Assembly: GCA_951406725.2 (NCBI GenBank)
Contig: OX597818.1
Location: forward strand, 54,312,001 to 54,376,000
Length of the DNA: 64,000 nt
Origin: Octopus vulgaris
Lineage: Eukaryota
Reading direction: 5' to 3'
Shown here one piece after another: positions 9,218-62,141 of this stretch. Each line of letters begins with the position of its first letter. Position 1 is the stretch's first letter. Below the pieces are notes generated by a model. It searched no databases and had not been told where the DNA came from. It saw only the letters and a program-made list of their open reading frames with translations. The position numbers and the translations under genes are program-made.

Positions 9218-12200
9218 TTTCAACAATTGAGGGTAAAATTAATTAATTATTAATCAATTTCACCAAGTGTTCAGTATGCAAAGGGACCATTTAAGGCGAA
9301 TTCAAATTATTACATTATATAAAAGGGCTTAGTAAAATAAATTACTTCGCCGCATACTGAACTCATTAGAAATAGCAGCTAAAAAACTTTTTTAAAGCTA
9401 TTTCTAATACTTAAAGAAAATCTCTCTCATATATAGCGTTTGCCTAATTCAACTCACAAAAGTTTGGGGTAAGGACATTAAAAAATCAAATGCTAAGGTT
9501 ATTTGAGTACGTACGTTTCAAGATTAGTCAAAACAACACTTCTATCTTCAGCTCAGAAATTCCTTGGTTTGGATTTGGAAACACTGAAAGTAAGAACATA
9601 CCCTTTCGAAGATTCGCTCGTTACTAACAGTGCCAACAAACCCAAAATAAGCAAGTGAAGAATTCCTGTCCTCCCCTTTCCACCAGCGTGGGTTAAAATC
9701 ATCAAACGCTATGCTTATTTCGGTAAAATCCGAAGCATTAATTAGAGGGAGATTAATTATAATTTCAACAATTGAGGGTAAAATTAATTAATTATTAATC
9801 AATTTCACCAAGTGTTCAGTATGCAAAGGGACCATTTAAGGCGAATTCAAATTATTACATTATATAAAAGGGCTTAGTAAAATAAATTACTTCGCCGCAT
9901 ACTGAACTCATTAGAAATAGCAGCTAAAAAAACTTTTTTAAAGCTATTTCTAATACTTAAAGAAAATCTCTCTCATATATAGCGTTTGCCTAATTCAACT
10001 CACAAAAGTTTGGGGGTAAGGACATTAAAAAATCAAATGCTAAGGTTATTTGAGTACGTACGTTTCAAGATTAGTCAAAACAACACTTCTATCTTCAGCT
10101 CAGAAATTCCTTGGTTTGGATTTGGAAACACTGAAAGTAAGAACATACCCTTTCGAAGATTCGCTCGTTACTAACAGTGCCAACAAACCCAAAATAAGCA
10201 AGTGAAGAATTCCTGTCCTCCCCTTTCCACCAGCGTGGGTTAAAATCATCAAACGCTATGCTTATTTCGGTAAAATCCGAAGCATTAATTAGAGGGAGAT
10301 TAATTATAATTTCAACAATTGAGGGTAAAATTAATTAATTATTAATCAATTTCACCAAGTGTTCAGTATGCAAAGGGACCATTTAAGGCGAATTCAAATT
10401 ATTACATTATATAAAAGGGCTTAGTAAAATAAATTACTTCGCCGCATACTGAACTCATTAGAAATAGCAGCTAAAAAACTTTTTTAAAGCTATTTCTAAT
10501 ACTTAAAGAAAATCTCTCTCATATATAGCGTTTGCCTAATTCAACTCACAAAAGTTTGGGGGTAAGGACATTAAAAAATCAAATGCTAAGGTTATTTGAG
10601 TACGTACGTTTCAAGATTAGTCAAAACAACACTTCTATCTTCAGCTCAGAAATTCCTTGGTTTGGATTTGGAAACACTGAAAGTAAGAACATACCCTTTC
10701 GAAGATTCGCTCGTTACTAACAGTGCCAACAAACCCAAAATAAGCAAGTGAAGAATTTCTGTCCTCCCCTTTCCACCAGCGTGGGTTAAAATCATCAAAC
10801 GCTATGCTTATTTCGGTAAAATCCGAAGCATTAATTAGAGGGAGATTAATTATAATTTCAACAATTGAGGGTAAAATTAATTAATTATTAATCAATTTCA
10901 CCAAGTGTTCAGTATGCAAAGGGACCATTTAAGGCGAATTCAAATTATTACATTATATAAAAGGGCTTAGTAAAATAAATTACTTCGCCGCATACTGAAC
11001 TCATTCTGAGCGAACGCATTCTTACTTTCAGTGTTTCCAAATCCAAACCAAGGAAGAGCTGAAGATAGTGTTGTTTTGACTAATCTTGAAACGTACGTAC
11101 TCAAATAACCTTAGCATTTGATTTTTTAATGTCCTTACCCCCAAACTTTTGTGAGTTGAATTAGGCAAACGCTATATATGAGAGAGATTTTCTTTAAGTA
11201 TTAGAAATAGCTTTAAAAAAGTTTTTTAGCTGCTATTTCTAATGAGTTCAGTATGCGGCGAAGTAATTTATTTTACTAAGCCCTTTTATATAATGTAATA
11301 ATTTGAATTCGCCTTAAATGGTCCCTTTGCATACTGAACACTTGGTGAAATTGATTAATAATTAATTAATTTTACCCTCAATTGTTGAAATTATAATTAA
11401 TCTCCCTCTAATTAATGCTTCGGATTTTACCGAAATAAGCATAGCGTTTGATGATTTTAACCCACGCTGGTGGAAAGGGGAGGACAGAATTCTTCACTTG
11501 CTTATTTTGGGTTTGTTGGCACTGTTAGTAACGAGCGAATCTTCGAAAGGGTATGTTCTTACTTTCAGTGTTTCCAAATCCAAACCAAGGAATTTCTGAG
11601 CTGAAGATAGAAGTGTTGTTTTGACTAATCTTGAAACGTACGTACTCAAATAACCTTAGCATTTGATTTTTTAATGTCCTTACCCCAAACTTTTGTGAGT
11701 TGAATTAGGCAAACGCTATATATGAGAGAGATTTTCTTTAAGTATTAGAAATAGCTTTAAAAAAGTTTTTTAGCTGCTATTTCTAATGAGTTCAGTATGC
11801 GGCGAAGTAATTTATTTTACTAAGCCCTTTTATATAATGTAATAATTTGAATTCGCCTTAAATGGTCCCTTTGCATACTGAACACTTGGTGAAATTGATT
11901 AATAATTAATTAATTTTACCCTCAATTGTTGAAATTATAATTAATCTCCCTCTAATTAATGCTTCGGATTTTACCGAAATAAGCATAGCGTTTGATGATT
12001 TTAACCCACGCTGGTGGAAAGGGGAGGACAGAAATTCTTCACTTGCTTATTTTGGGTTTGTTGGCACTGTTAGTAACGAGCGAATCTTCGAAAGGGTATG
12101 TTCTTACTTTCAGTGTTTCCAAATCCAAACCAAGGAATTTCTGAGCTGAAGATAGAAGTGTTGTTTTGACTAATCTTGAAACGTACGTACTCAAATAACC

Positions 12201-12930
12201 TTAGCATTTGATTTTTTAATGTCCTTACCCCCAAACTTTTGTGAGTTGAATTAGGCAAACGCTATATATGAGAGAGATTTTCTTTAAGTATTAGAAATAG
12301 CTTTAAAAAAGTTTTTTAGCTGCTATTTCTAATGAGTTCAGTATGCGGCGAAGTAATTTATTTTACTAAGCCCTTTTATATAATGTAATAATTTGAATTC
12401 GCCTTAAATGGTCCCTTTGCATACTGAACACTTGGTGAAATTGATTAATAATTAATTAATTTTACCCTCAATTGTTGAAATTATAATTAATCTCCCTCTA
12501 ATTAATGCTTCGGATTTTACCGAAATAAGCATAGCGTTTGATGATTTTAACCCACGCTGGTGGAAAGGGGAGGACAGGAATTCTTCACTTGCTTATTTTG
12601 GGTTTGTTGGCACTGTTAGTAACGAGCGAATCTTCGAAAGGGTATGTTCTTACTTTCAGTGTTTCCAAATCCAAACCAAGGAATTTCTGAGCTGAAGATA
12701 GAAGTGTTGTTTTGACTAATCTTGAAACGTACGTACTCAAATAACCTTAGCATTTGATTTTTTAATGTCCTTACCCCCAAACTTTTGTGAGTTGAATTAG
12801 GCAAACGCTATATATGAGAGAGATTTTCTTTAAGTATTAGAAATAGCTTTAAAAAAGTTTTTTAGCTGCTATTTCTAATGAGTTCAGTATGCGGCGAAGT
12901 AATTTATTTTACTAAGCCCTTTTATATAAT
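9218..12930. repeat. ~546-bp tandem repeat array in two head-to-head arms (retrozyme-like), (TA)n at both ends
   Basis: Unit starts at 9221, 9766, 10313 and 10859. Orientation switches at ~11006, and inverted units run to 12930. Confidence 0.95.
11597..11648 (+). ncRNA. Type I hammerhead ribozyme motif (one per 546-bp unit)
   Basis: tgag-CTGAAGA-[t-aga..agt..act..tct-t]-GAAA-cgtacg-TA-ctca. Copies on + at 11056-11102, 12142-12193 and 12688-12739; on - at 9504-9555, 10051-10102 and 10597-10648. Confidence 0.8.
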
Positions 12931-31422: not shown

Positions 31423-31553
31423 TATTTATATATATGAAATAAATCTCCGAGCGAGGTATAAACAGTAGCTGTACGACATCGTTAACACTTTTCCGAGATC
31501 AGTGACTTTTAGTCACCGGAAAAAGGATGTACATTTGCATTGGGAGCCACTTC

Positions 31554-31735
31554 CGTGTGTATCGTGTCAGGTTCGAGATGGGAAGGATGGCTTCCCTTTG
31601 TAAATACTGATAGGGCACAAATAGTATGTCAATAGCCAGCTGGAGGAGATGTCCTCCTGGGGCTACAAGCTACAGTAGCATCCACCCTTAAGGGTTAGCC
31701 ACATTTAAGTGGCAAATATACGCAAATATACTTCA

Positions 31736-31740
<5 letters not shown>
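31554..31740 (+). mobile_element. Fragment of the ~355-bp hammerhead element family
   Basis: Homologous to 46145-46320 (ctcctggggcta..gctacagta..ggttagcca); ends at (TA)n. Confidence 0.7.
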
Positions 31741-43985: not shown

Positions 43986-44038
<53 letters not shown>

Positions 44039-44450
44039 AAAGTAAGCACATAAATGCGTAACAAGGTAGAAAAAAAATTGTACTCGAATACCAGAATTAG
44101 AGTAACATGCTTTATTAGAAAGCAGCCTTATGGTATTTGCAAAGGGAGGCCATCCCTTTCTCGTAAGCCTAAGTGATACGCACGGACTGCAGTTTCGAGG
44201 TTGTTGCCTCTTGTCAACGGGCGGTAATCACCGGATGAACTCCTGGGGCTAAAAGCTACAGTAACACCCCCCTTTGTGGTTAGCCATATTGAGATGGCTA
44301 TTATACTTTACATTGTCGAGGGGCTACTGTTTACATCTCGTTCAGCGATTTAATAATGCTTGCAGACAGTTTTTCGAAATCAGTGACGGAAGTTACTAGA
44401 AAAACACTTATATATTTGCATACAGGCTTTCCCTTTCATCGTGATCCGGT

Positions 44451-46086
44451 GGTTTTTTTGTTTGTGTCGGATATTTTGGATTAAGTTTATTGTGTATCGC
44501 GGTTGTGAGTTTGAATTCGTTGGTGGAAGCTGTTACGGCGTGGTGAATTGTGGGTGTTTTTTTCGAATATGCAAACCCAAACTTATGTAGGAGCGGCAGG
44601 CAAGGCTCTGGCTGCGACCGAGCTGCAGTTGGAGGAAGTGGTCGTCGAGAAGGGGAGCCTGAAGGAATACTTCAACAGTTTCAAGAAGGAGGGTGACTGC
44701 CTGAGAGTCACACTACCAGAAGACGAAGTGAAAGAGGCAGAGAGGCGTATTGTGACATATAGAACGTGGAGCGTGGCTTCGAAGAAAATAGAAGTGGCAG
44801 AGGTGAAGGAAATCGAGAGGTGTTTGCAGGAGATTGAAGAAAAAGCTACCTTCTATAATAGAGGTAGAAAGTACGCGACGGTGGTAGTTCATTTTGAGAA
44901 AGAAGCTGAAGCGAAGAAGAACGCTACGAAGATATTGAAAAATGAAAAATGGGTATTACTACCTAGCTATTGTGGAAGACGAGCGGTGAGAATAAGGATC
45001 AGCAAAATTTCACCAGAATTGAAAATGGAGAGAATTATAGCAGCAACAATATTTAACTGCAAGGAGAATGTCGAGATATTGAAGATAGAAAGGTCGAAGG
45101 AAGTAAAGAGGTGGGGTTATGCAGTACAGGCTTTGGTACACATAACCATGCCAGACATGTATAACATCCCTGAAGAGTTGGTGTTCCCCGACGAGACACG
45201 ACTCATAGTCATGGTAGAGGGGAGACCCCCAGTGTGCTACACATGCAAGATTAGAGGCCACATGAAGGATGTGTGTCCGCAAAAAAAGTACAAGAGGAGA
45301 TGATAACATTGGAGGCTCTGACAGAGGAATTGCAAATGGCGGATGTAGAAGAAGAAAGTGTGGATACAGATAATGTGGAAAGTGGTGACAAGTTGGTGAA
45401 GGAGGAAGAAAAGGAAAGAACAGAAGGAAAAGAAGATAGAAAGAGAACGCGGGTGGAATCACCACCTAAAGTACAACAAAAAAAAAAAGAAAAAAACCAA
45501 AAAGAAGACTACCGACGAGATAGAGGTTCGAACGCACGAAGAGGAAGATACTGAAACAAAAGCGAGTGAAGTTTCAAGGAGAAAGAATGGGAAAGTAAAG
45601 TGGAAGATTGGCTGAGAGTATGTAGGGAAGGAAGTAGACCAAAAGGAAGAAATTTGAAAGCGGTAATGTTGTACAAGAAGGACAAGGAAATTGAGAAGTT
45701 GGCAAACATAGAAAAATTTAACCAGAGTGAAATTAAATCCGAAAATGTTTGATGACCAGGTGAAGGCGGCGATTGTGGAAAGAGAGACAGGGATGAAACT
45801 GAGCAAAGTGTATACAGGTATATGCATAATGCAATACGTTCGGTACGAGAGTTTGCCAGGGATTATAGAGCAGGAGGAAGTACTTGAATACATAACAGAT
45901 GAACGCCCGGAATAAAACAATTTAAATGAAACTGTGAGCTTGGGGACCCGTAAGACATTTCATTAATTCATTATAAATAATTCATTGTCATACCATACTT
46001 TTCGATTTTTTTATTATATGTACCCCATGTCCTGTATTGTAATGTCTCCTCTGAATTTGGGCCATTGTGCCTATAATAAAGAGTTA
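44451..46086 (+). mobile_element. ORF1-only (HAL1/Tx1-ORF1-like) retroelement with 13-bp TSD
   Basis: TSD atcgtgatccggt at 44438-44450 and 46087-46099; AATAAA near the 3' end; no RT visible. Confidence 0.7.
44548..45303 (+). CDS. Gag/ORF1-like protein with CCHC zinc knuckle (frameshifted; probably continues to ~45915)
   Basis: VEGRPPVCYTCKIRGHMKDVCP (CX2CX4HX4C), preceded by an RRM-like segment and followed by a charged low-complexity tail. Confidence 0.7.
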   Translation: MWVFFSNMQTQTYVGAAGKALAATELQLEEVVVEKGSLKEYFNSFKKEGDCLRVTLPEDEVKEAERRIVTYRTWSVASKKIEVAEVKEIERCLQEIEEKATFYNRGRKYATVVVHFEKEAEAKKNATKILKNEKWVLLPSYCGRRAVRIRISKISPELKMERIIAATIFNCKENVEILKIERSKEVKRWGYAVQALVHITMPDMYNIPEELVFPDETRLIVMVEGRPPVCYTCKIRGHMKDVCPQKKYKRR

Positions 46087-46105
46087 ATCGTGATCCGGTT
46101 ATTAC

Positions 46106-46150
46106 CTCCCGTTGACAAGAGGCAACAACCTCGAAACTGCAGTCCGTGCG
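46106..46150 (+). ncRNA. Type I hammerhead, U3-A8 core
   Basis: ctcccg-TTGACAA-gagg-caacaa-cctc-GAAA-ctgcag-TC-cgtgcg. Confidence 0.75.
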
Positions 46151-46355
46151 TATCACTTAGGCTTACGAGAAAGGGATGGCCTCCCTTCGCAAATACCATA
46201 AGGACACAGATAATGTGCCTAAAGCCAGCTGGAGACGATGATCTCCTGGGGCTAAAAGCTACAGTAACACCCCCCCCCCTTTGTGGTTAGCCATATTGAG
46301 ATGGCTATTATACTTTACATTGTCGAGCGGTTACTGTTTACATCTCGTTCAGAGA

Positions 46356-46420
<65 letters not shown>

Positions 46421-46484: not shown

Positions 46485-47186
46485 TAAGAAATATTGAATT
46501 TCTAAATCTCTCGTAGAGACATGTACGGTGGTAGGGCGATAGAATGGTTGTATACTGTCAATCTCACAAGAACGTGACAGTAGGGGGTACACCACCGTTG
46601 TATAGCCCTAGGAGGCATCGAACGCCTCCTGACAGTTTCGACACATTTTTTTCCCTGTGTCCTTATATACATATACGAAGGGGAGACAAACACCCCCAAC
46701 CGCCGGAACTGCATCTAGGGACACCGTGTTTCAGGATCATTGTCCTTCATCGGCCTAGAGTAGCAGACACCGGTCGGCTGGTGATATTTGCCTGGACTTC
46801 GCATCTGTATATATGTAAACCATTCTATCGCCCCACCACCGTACATGTCTCTACGAGAGATTTAGAAATTCAATATTTCTTATTTTGATAATCAGTGAAT
46901 AAACTTCACTGAGTTTACATATATACAGATGCGAAGTCAAGGCAAATATCACCAGCCGACCGGTGTCTGCTACTCTAGGCCGATGAAGGACAATGATCCT
47001 GAAACACGGTGTCCCTAGATGCAGTTCCGGCGGTTGGGGGTGTTTGTCTCCCCTTCGTATATGTATATAAGGACACAGGGAAAAAATGTGTCGAAGCTGT
47101 CAGGAGGCGTTCGATGCCTCCTAGGGCTATACAACGGTGGTGTACCCCCTATTGTCACGTTCTTGTTAGATTGACAGTATACAACC

Positions 47187-47188
<2 letters not shown>
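46485..47188. repeat. Head-to-head pair of a ~366-bp hammerhead-containing unit, (TA)n at both ends
   Basis: 46485-46820 is a circularly permuted reverse complement of 46821-47188. Confidence 0.9.
46974..47019 (+). ncRNA. Type I hammerhead, CCGAUGA (U4C) core
   Basis: tctagg-CCGATGA-agga-caatga-tcct-GAAA-cac-g-gtg-TC-cctaga; identical copy on - at 46714-46759. Confidence 0.82.
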
Positions 47189-47265
<77 letters not shown>

Positions 47266-47271
47266 GGACTA

Positions 47272-48000
47272 GTTATGGAGCAGTTACTGTCTATATCTCA
47301 TTTAGAGAATTATTATTGCTGTCGAACAGATTTTCGAAATCAGCAAATGTATTTTGCTTGAAAATCTATATATAAATATCCTGCAGAGTGAGTTGTTCGT
47401 CGAGGAGGCGGGTGCCTACCACACGTTGATAATAGGCAATACACCTTGAAACCTAGGTCCGTGTGTGGTTTCCGCTTCATCGGGGAATTATCTCCTCCCT
47501 TGCAGGATAGAGGACGCCGTGATGGTGTCAAGCCTATCTGGCGACGTTGATGTTCGCCTGGGGCTAAATGCAACAGTAACACCCCCACCACCCTGCCCTG
47601 TCCCTAGCCATATTCAGATGGCTTTAGTCCCTTATGTTATGGAGCAGTTACTGTCTATATCTCATTTAGAGAATTATTATTGCTGTCGAACAGATTTTCG
47701 AAATCAGCAAATGTATTTTGCTTGAAAATCTATATATAAATATCCTGCAGAGTGAGTTGTTCGTCGAGGAGGCGGGTGCCTACCACACGTTGATAATAGG
47801 CAATACACCTTGAAACCTAGGTCCGTGTGTGGTTTCCGCTTCATCGGGGAATTATCTCCCTTTGCAGGATAGAGGACGCCGTGATGGTGTCAAGCCTATC
47901 TGGCGACGTTGATGTTCGCCTGGGGCTAAATGCAACAGTAACACCCCCACCACCCTGCCCTGTCCCTAGCCATATTCAGATGGCTTTAGTCCCTTATGTT
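47272..48000 (+). repeat. Tandem dimer of a 364-bp retrozyme-like unit
   Basis: Unit starts at 47272 and 47636. The 3' end runs into (TA)n, and a short inverted copy of that end sits at 47260-47271. Confidence 0.92.
47420..47465 (+). ncRNA. Type I hammerhead, U3-A8 core
   Basis: cacacg-TTGATAA-t-agg-caataca-cct-t-GAAA-cctagg-TC-cgtgtg; second copy at 47784-47829. Confidence 0.8.
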
Positions 48001-48019
48001 ATATATATATATATATATA

Positions 48020-48404
48020 TCTCTCTCTATATAAACGGCAGTTTGTCTGTGCGTTTTCTGTGTGTCTGTTTTCTCGTACCCTCACTCTGACCACGGCTTT
48101 CAACCGATTCTGATGAAACTTGACACACACATAGTCCAATGTCATAATTCAAAACTAACGCAGCGAAAATTTTGAAAAGTTCCCCCAGTTCTGAAAAAAA
48201 TCGATAAATTCGACATGGGGTCGAGAATCAGAAACCCAAACCACAGACCGTCTAGGGGACGCAACTCCACCTTTTTTAACTCTCAAAACAAATTTACCAT
48301 CATTTTTTTTCCATTTTTTTGCTATTTTTTGGCTATAACTCTCTAAAAATGCTTTATAGTTATTTCCCTTACAAACCTGAGCAACGCCGGTGCGATACTG
48401 CTAG
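48020..48404 (+). mobile_element. Non-autonomous Helitron
   Basis: TC...gagcaacgccgg...CTAG within a TA tract. Confidence 0.8.

Positions 48405-60601: not shown

Positions 60602-62141
<1,540 letters not shown>

Follow-up and report, generated by a model that had tools for sequence, protein, structure and literature searches.

A retroelement nested in a hammerhead-bearing repeat

This analysis concerns a short, protein-coding retroelement nested in a candidate retrozyme, a tandem repeat with a hammerhead motif, in the genome of Octopus vulgaris. The stretch analysed (the window) comprises 64,000 nucleotides (nt) of contig OX597818.1 (assembly GCA_951406725.2, positions 54,312,001 to 54,376,000 of the forward strand), and window positions are used throughout. 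An insert of 1636 base pairs (bp) occupies 44451–46086 (plus strand) between two copies of a 13-mer, at 44438–44450 and 46087–46099 (both plus), in agreement with the insert and 13-bp duplication described in an earlier note on this DNA. The target duplication is probably 14 bp long, with one later change in the right copy, because an inverted, empty arm of the host in the window carries at the next base the G of the left copy. The left copy starts at the predicted transcription start (+1, at 44438) and would form the 5' leader of the element's RNA, and the right copy would hold the original +1 of the host, cut off from its promoter.

The open reading frame (ORF) of the insert, ORF1 (44569–45915, plus), is broken in this copy: when aligned to an intact relative, the frame reaches the stop codon at 45913–45915 by way of four frame changes. 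It includes the codons of a CCHC zinc knuckle (CX2CX4HX4C, 45235–45276, plus), recognised from the sequence and from a Pfam zf-CCHC match (E 0.013) that lies under the curated cut-off. The insert is without reverse transcriptase (RT), as searched with tblastn, which gave no match to the ORF2 of long interspersed nuclear elements (LINEs) at E≤1; a CCHC protein unaccompanied by RT is what the earlier note had read here. The 3' tail (46020–46086, plus) consists of a GTCC-rich motif and a predicted stem-loop, laid out as in the tail of the partner LINE described below. An AATAAA lies at 46075–46080, and the insert stops a few bases later without poly(A).

The host, here termed family A, is split by the insert into an upstream part (44234–44437, plus), the first approximately 125 nt of which recur at 46237–46362, and a downstream part (46100–46360, plus), delimited by sequence and flank comparison and ending in (TA)n. 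A motif resembling the proximal sequence element (PSE) of small nuclear RNA (snRNA) genes, ATCAGTG (44379–44385, plus), precedes the insertion site by 59 nt, and a TATA-like element (44409–44417, plus), read from the sequence and putative in function, is positioned at -29 to -21 from the predicted +1. As previously noted, a hammerhead follows just past the insert: the type I motif (46105–46152, plus; core 46112–46144, predicted cut after 46144) is found 25 nt downstream. Its core, starting at 46112, is a U3-A8 variant, and its helix III is short with a palindromic loop. Since Rfam returned no hammerhead at the gathering threshold nor at E≤10, and single-strand folding of hammerheads and 3' tails was no better than that of shuffles (z -0.1 to -1.7), the ribozyme call is based on the motif and the pairing of its stems. 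Stems I and II pair across families despite their different sequences, and the N3-N8 pair (U-A, C-G or U-G) is kept in 57 of 59 distinct hammerhead motifs.

The direct repeats of the host lie 2003–2007 apart, which, after subtraction of the insert and one duplication, leaves a unit of 354–358 bp. The unit of about 354 bp proposed earlier is thereby recovered; its homology to the unit at 47272 also stands, albeit as a distant one (72–76% over 150–160 bp, E 1e-19 to 1e-22). Over its right flank, the locus shares 94% identity with the closest empty retrozyme. An inverted partial copy of the host (44126–44236, minus; hammerhead core 44217–44185), 97% complementary to 46093–46203, stops inside the target sequence and contains no part of the insert. 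Neither this arm nor the promoter-like motif at 44379 figures in the earlier note. With tandem monomers of 354–364 bp, each with a type I hammerhead motif, the host units fit the description of metazoan non-LTR retrozymes and are candidates for self-cleaving repeats with circular RNA.

A family of ORF1-only copies

A DNA search with the insert (best 40 of 271 candidates scored) identified, on many chromosomes, near-full-length copies that have both ends in common, and a protein search was made with ORF1 (best 94 of 19,357 candidates scored). The loci examined hold 110 distinct ORF starts, 84 of them in the lineage of the insert (lineage 1) and 26 in lineage 2. An open frame of at least 420 amino acids (aa) is present in 30 of these copies; intact ORFs are 434–463 aa long and are followed directly by the 3' tail. 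Among ten intact copies, the ratio of non-synonymous to synonymous substitution (dN/dS) was 0.12–0.33 in 42 of 45 pairs, the others being saturated, which indicates that ORF1 is under purifying selection. Given the shared ends, the intact ORFs running directly into the tail, the lack of any ORF2 remnant and these ratios, the insert is assigned to an ORF1-only non-autonomous family and not to a truncated LINE. A single ORF1-like gene without ORF2, in a multi-copy element with defined ends and target duplications, is also what characterises HAL1-type elements, so that the earlier suggestion of an ORF1-only, HAL1-like element is upheld, with the insert as a full-length member. A Penelope-type terminal repeat was ruled out for the insert, as the upstream 3'-end copies are separate, diverged tandem insertions.

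The predicted model of an intact ORF1 comprises two RRM-like domains, the CCHC knuckle, a linker that is acidic and disordered, and an alpha/beta domain at the C-terminus, the last being predicted confidently (predicted local distance difference test score 84.6). No clear structural match to this domain was obtained (best Foldseek E 0.024, best VIA Z 4.5), which is not proof of a new fold. A word-based protein search with an intact ORF1 gave no match, and a profile search gave one named protein, which matches the ORF1 of the partner LINE. The full hidden Markov model scan returned 408 unnamed proteins at E≤1e-10, and the look-alikes of ORF1 are mollusc CCHC proteins and ZCCHC3-like clusters.

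Several copies of unusual structure were encountered. Three ORF1 copies (L071:5376-6725, L235:1922-3283 and L069:7699-8676) have long branches, a skewed base make-up and many apparent A-to-G changes, a pattern suggestive of RNA editing ahead of reverse transcription. L059, L066 and L072-L076 contain a third family of CCHC ORF1s, about 26% identical and longer at the N-terminus, which forms tandem stacks with copies of lineage 2 at a TATA-type site and lacks ORF2 in the stretches examined. In L025 and L206 the 3' end of an insert, a duplication and the 5' end are joined in inverted arrangement to the 3' part of a LINE; twin priming or a later rearrangement is possible.

Retrozymes as recurrent and independent targets

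The earlier note had asked whether other copies occupy the same target site. A retrozyme flank was detected by BLAST in 61 of 73 lineage-1 arrays, with a retrozyme library derived from the flanks of 10 of the loci that it scored. Among the remaining arrays, L228 and L229 have a retrozyme flank by eye, three stand behind another element and seven are located elsewhere. At least three mutually dissimilar retrozyme families serve as hosts, and the duplication sequence differs from family to family.

Insert and host identities disagree: the inserts of L001 and L003 are 94.3% identical and their hosts 85%, those of L001 and L004 are 93.7% identical in hosts of 58–63%, and L004 and L016 have hosts that are 97.6% identical around inserts of 86%. 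The flank at the locus is 94% identical to an empty retrozyme versus 85–86% to the hosts of its closest insert relatives (inserts 94–95%). This disagreement shows that insertions into retrozymes are independent events. Empty monomers stand beside filled ones in arrays L003, L064, L070 and L077, and some arrays have different inserts in successive monomers. On the insert tree, from which 30 of the 110 copies were left out for want of a usable 3' end or length, host type clusters yet switches several times; as read from the tree, with L218 and one L069 copy assigned to family C, hosts A and C would each have arisen three times.

Position of the insertion site behind promoter motifs

An ATCAGT-type motif is found 57–61 nt upstream of +1 in 20 of 20 U1, 28 of 30 U2 and 14 of 14 U5 genes and in none of 12 U6 genes; the two U2 genes without it are preceded by the partner LINE. 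With a matrix trained on 14 snRNA promoters only, the flank at the locus scored 12.5 bits against a 99th percentile of 6.8 for random sequence, and 24 insert flanks scored 9–16 bits at 54–61 nt, values reached at one in 3,000 positions drawn at random from the window. Among the first-in-array copies of lineage 1, 49 have both junctions; 32 of these are situated 53–61 nt behind the motif, five are at 63–68 nt and 12 have no usable motif. The five belong to one clade, the target sequences of which are dissimilar. LINE 5' ends lie 57–60 nt behind the motif in 13 of 15 cases, the other two being that of L200, at 50 nt, and one in tandem, and in empty family-C monomers the motif is at 58 nt in 12 of 12. 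As the insertion site thus has the distance of U1, U2 and U5 starts behind the motif of U1, U2 and U5 genes, it is very probably a polymerase II start site. A polymerase III promoter of the U6 type was ruled out, as U6 genes lack the motif and runs of T occur in element and host.

Lineage 2 is nested within lineage 1 on the tree, and none of its 16 arrays is at a retrozyme. In 13 of these 16, a TATA box lies upstream, in at least four different repeats, and the sites are about 26–30 nt behind it where measured or read by eye. The TATA-type target in L080, L071, L227 and L235 is a repeat with CCAAT and TATA boxes that adjoins a protease-RT ORF in L080 and is probably a long terminal repeat (LTR). 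A fixed position behind a promoter element across different sequences, as known for TRE5 and Ty3, was found here, with L200 as the exception. The retrozyme-targeting parasite envisaged in the earlier note is supported, and its partner LINE is described below. 'Retrozyme' proved too narrow a term for the target: this is the start of transcription predicted for promoters of the snRNA type, with which retrozymes are equipped, and U2 +1 is used as well, the sister lineage being found behind TATA boxes.

A partner LINE at the same site

Tandem stacks at the site include a LINE of 5.4–5.5 kilobases (kb) with a 503-aa CCHC ORF1 and a 1129-aa ORF2 bearing an endonuclease of the apurinic/apyrimidinic type (APE), an RT and zf-RVT. 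The 1129-aa ORF2 of L199 matches Exo_endo_phos, RVT_1 and zf-RVT, and the ORF1 of L194 matches zf-CCHC (E 7e-4). The LINE sample consists of 30 3' ends from the best copies (40 of 2,525 candidates). Twenty-two of these ends are at the retrozyme site (18 by pattern, four by eye), with the hammerhead core about 33–38 nt further on; three abut U2 +1, four run into a duplication with a further element behind it, in one case with the U2 sequence, and one is elsewhere. The U2 cases fall in two U2 arrays and hence represent at least two events. In L191-L194 (U2 arrays on C3 and C23), near-intact LINEs occupy U2 +1 and the downstream U2 copy is without promoter.

The LINE often stands in tandem with ORF1-only copies at the same site and shares the layout of its 3' tail with them, and we consider it highly likely that this LINE supplies endonuclease and RT in trans. 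Its ORF1 is 31% identical to theirs over 206 aa (E 1e-34). Its RT belongs to the L1 group, with human L1 ORF2p as best solved relative (E 8e-47, versus 1e-22 for R2). APE, RT, zinc motif and CCHC ORF1 match the Tx1 clade and are also common to other L1-group clades, and no homologue returned for the LINE bore the Tx1 name. With 22 of 30 LINE ends and 61 of 73 ORF1-only arrays at retrozymes, both exceed the 20% of flanks of one sequence type by which target preference in Tx1-type elements has been defined (PMC4494074).

An abundant repeat resembling short interspersed nuclear elements (SINEs; L066:5790-6237) has the same tail layout as lineage 2, resembling the tails of the LINE and of lineage 1 (window 46020–46086). 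SINE-type tails precede the target duplication in L065:2035 and, upstream, in L243, and SINEs may use the same machinery and site.

Leaders at the 5' junctions

In LINE copies located in U2 genes, the U2 duplication is followed by 14 nt that agree with the +1 of one subfamily of retrozymes. L234, located in a (TG)n tract, has U1 +1 to +19 at its 5' end, and L015, L217 and L221 have a second, foreign +1 leader after the duplication. Left target copies also differ from empty targets: in family B a C is present at eight of nine filled and none of 25 empty sites (all T), and in family C a variant is present at six of 12 filled and none of 12 empty sites, although these variants are weaker evidence than the foreign leaders. 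Because the foreign leaders begin at a host +1 and the left copies carry variants absent from empty targets, the donor RNA in all likelihood starts at the host +1, its leader being copied into the new 5' junction. Contigs of presumed-RNA runs, which cannot show transcription starts or expression, gave thin cover on the insert and deep cover on retrozyme parts. L020 and L241 have in common an unexplained 5' leader, unlike any retrozyme or U1, U2, U5 or U6 start examined, which may mark another snRNA-type gene.

Neighbouring repeats in the window

Between (TA)n and the inverted arm lies a fragment of an unrelated repeat (44037–44125, no strand assigned), with matches of 81–84% in L127 and L248 only. 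Downstream of the locus, a family-B retrozyme forms an inverted pair with an empty target site (46539–47193, no strand assigned; PSE-like motif at 46891, hammerhead core at 46980), followed by the two-copy 364-bp retrozyme of a more distant family, likewise empty (47272–48002, plus), with PSE-like motifs at 47339 and 47703 and hammerheads at 47426 and 47790. Directly after this tandem, at 48020–48400, a repeat of the kind that serves as TATA-type target in L058 was recognised by eye, also empty. More hammerhead-like motifs occur at 9551–12740, where they are arranged as two back-to-back arms, and at 61114–61730, in repeats of approximately 545 bp and 560 bp. A retrozyme fragment related to family A, apparently without start region and hammerhead, is present at 31500–31740.

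Discussion

The observations are best accommodated if an ORF1-only element inserted into a pre-existing hammerhead retrozyme at its predicted transcription start. The 5.5-kb LINE of the L1/Tx1 group at the same site would be the likely source of enzymes. The element would be transcribed from the host's snRNA-type promoter, with the RNA leader templating the 5' junction; the site would be picked according to where it lies with respect to the promoter complex, with tethering or the open complex as the means; and the hammerhead would be a bystander belonging to the host. We regard it as likely that the locus holds a full-length, frameshifted copy of this kind, a HAL1-like parasite placed at the retrozyme's predicted start, mobilised by the LINE and served by the host promoter. 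That the site is chosen relative to the promoter complex is also probable, if with slightly less assurance, and such a choice agrees with targets of unrelated sequence, with an offset peculiar to one clade and with the move to TATA promoters. A role of ORF1 as the adaptor for site choice, proposed by analogy with TRE5-A, whose ORF1 binds TFIIIB, is doubtful.

A truncated or deleted ordinary LINE that landed by chance might be suspected from the frameshifts of the insert copy and from the minority of copies at unrelated sites; the ends common to many copies, the intact ORFs of 434–463 aa running directly into a tail, the missing ORF2 remnant and the low dN/dS refute it, and its probability is next to negligible. 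The earlier note had also raised the possibility of a composite, protein-coding retrozyme of about 2 kb that moves as a single unit. On this reading host and insert would both be parts of it, the hammerhead would cleave it, copying would take in the whole, and the locus would be one such copy. At the locus this is rejected, as flank and insert do not share one history, the flank resembling an empty retrozyme (94%) more than it does the retrozymes around sister inserts (85–86%), and adjacent monomers within an array contain either no insert or different ones. Elsewhere there are structures that speak for it: L211, L249, L041 and L219 share one derived junction, in which a family-C retrozyme without promoter motif is joined to a 5'-shortened insert and retains its hammerhead; L229 has an inverted retrozyme arm joined to a 5'-shortened insert; and host type clusters on the insert tree. 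Yet a junction search (best 40 candidates scored) found the shared junction whole in only three places, and the fused copies are also compatible with an insert that has a long retrozyme leader. The fused subfamily may represent inserts whose long leader includes a hammerhead or a composite that retrozyme machinery copies, and a true composite, a retrozyme coding for protein, has its best candidates in these four loci (and L229); for the locus itself, a composite is very unlikely.

A more serious competitor is a choice of site by sequence, through endonuclease preference together with pairing of the RNA leader and 3' read-through with the target, whereby the match to start sites would follow from expression only there and from the resemblance of retrozyme starts to snRNA starts. 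TTYATCG is common to family-A and U2 targets, subfamilies cluster by host, and Tx1 targeting is, in the available part of PMC4494074, put down mainly to the endonuclease. The starts of family-A retrozymes do resemble the 5' ends of U2 and U1, for which reason sequence recognition can explain part of the pattern; L103 is an insertion outside retrozymes at a similar short sequence, and L200 keeps the same sequence site though a deletion puts its motif at 50 nt. Against this, hardly anything is common to families B and C and the targets of TATA type except a core of 3–4 nt, which, at 14–23 occurrences per kb, is too common to suffice for specificity alone (TTYATCG itself occurs at 0.4 per kb in the window). 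Moreover, inserts 94% alike are found in hosts that cannot be aligned, and the clade at 63–68 nt occupies dissimilar sequences. Site choice by sequence is on balance unlikely, though by no means as improbable as the composite.

Besides L103, L200 and the family-A starts, other findings count against the promoter-directed, LINE-mobilised element that we favour. Seven lineage-1 arrays had no retrozyme flank after inspection, the clustering by host on the insert tree would likewise result from leader pairing or composite copying, and the family samples consist of the best-scoring copies. The left copies' C/T variants fall on CpG dinucleotides, and a T-type query had been used to collect the empty sites of family B. 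In a presumed-RNA run, one contig reaches about 19 nt upstream of the predicted +1. Finally, the ORF1s of the ORF1-only element and the LINE are no more than 31% identical over 206 aa, the two elements have no similarity at the DNA level, and a direct parent was not found.

As regards known systems, ORF1-only followers, Tx1 elements that target transposons and U2, and retrozymes are already known. HAL1, HeT-A and Ag-Sponge are described in the available parts of PMC5753468 and PMC5786205 as ORF1-only non-autonomous LINEs; as there, only ORF1 is encoded and kept under selection and a LINE partner is probably needed. In contrast to those accounts, the octopus element is position-specific, apparently driven by a host promoter and, in lineage 1, without poly(A), and its ORF1 is 31% identical to that of its partner over the N-terminal half only, its C-terminal domain not aligning to it. 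In yeast and Dictyostelium, position-specific insertion is set by a promoter complex: according to PMC3159450 and PMC5911963, Ty3 inserts within 1–4 nt of the start site, the ORF1 of TRE5-A binds TFIIIB and works best in cis, and the ORF1-only, L1-type follower TRE5-A.2 of TRE5-A.1 keeps its ORF1. These elements use polymerase III genes and their own promoters, TRE5 about 50 bp upstream and in opposite orientation, whereas the octopus element is in sense orientation at predicted polymerase II starts, and tethering is a proposal.

The Tx1 clade offers the closest precedent for the target: in the parts of PMC4494074 and PMC4640811 drawn upon, target-specific members include Tx1L in Tx1D, Tx1-Mar and SINEU-3 in Mariner-N4, and Keno in U2, and transcription from flanking DNA is proposed for SINEU. 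As far as these accounts go, the systems have in common an APE-RT LINE aimed at U2 or at another mobile element, a non-autonomous follower that shares the site of the LINE, and a duplication sandwiched by tandem insertions. They differ in that the octopus target is a hammerhead retrozyme and U2 +1, that the follower encodes ORF1, and that the distance between site and promoter motif stays fixed while the sequences themselves are dissimilar. Metazoan non-LTR retrozymes are tandem units of 350–365 nt with a type I hammerhead in the part of PMC7229834 available, and newt satellite 2, as cited in the available part of PMC2220036, provides a precedent for an snRNA promoter on a hammerhead repeat; the octopus hosts agree with these in unit size, hammerhead type and predicted promoter type, and those parts of PMC7229834 and PMC2220036 mention no protein-coding insertion into, or LINE targeting of, such repeats. 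Searches of full-text literature, outside which most subscription papers, Repbase and supplements lay, returned no report of a LINE or ORF1-only element targeting retrozymes or snRNA start sites; Repbase or the supplementary Tx1 target lists of PMC4494074 could hold a prior description.

The position of the ribozyme and the exact site within U2 also set the octopus system apart. Its ribozyme belongs to the host and lies downstream of the insert, whereas R2's own ribozyme frees its 5' end; the Keno target site lies inside U2, whereas the octopus LINE is found at U2 +1. The octopus partner carries APE and is found at several target sequences. R2, in 28S ribosomal DNA, uses a restriction-like endonuclease at one conserved sequence; it depends on being co-transcribed from its target, flanking RNA aiding precise integration (PMC4494074), and in these respects the octopus element would be like it.

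Nucleotide-precise targeting through promoter complexes is documented for polymerase III genes (Ty3, TRE5), and Tx1 targeting is usually ascribed to the sequence preference of the endonuclease; a single L1/Tx1-group system whose insertions keep their distance behind promoter motifs of two classes, in sequences otherwise unrelated, makes both targeting models separable. A more far-reaching picture, which we put forward tentatively and rank below even odds, is that the polymerase II pre-initiation complex serves as docking point for the LINE together with its ORF1-only satellites, that they insert at the start site of this complex and that they switch host class via changes in ORF1. Lacking a promoter of their own, they would go wherever the complex is loaded, be it on snRNA genes, retrozymes or the TATA promoters of other repeats, again a tentative view, and it is with the same reserve that we regard the system as a polymerase II counterpart of Ty3 and TRE5 that silences retrozymes as a parasite. 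The insertions map the predicted promoter and start of retrozymes, which are little treated in the literature cited, and their pattern suggests why an ORF1-only element keeps ORF1. A site-specific LINE that reads promoter occupancy could serve as an insertion tool. Every insertion cuts a retrozyme or U2 gene from its promoter, which would make the element, where its host is a retrozyme, a parasite of a parasite.

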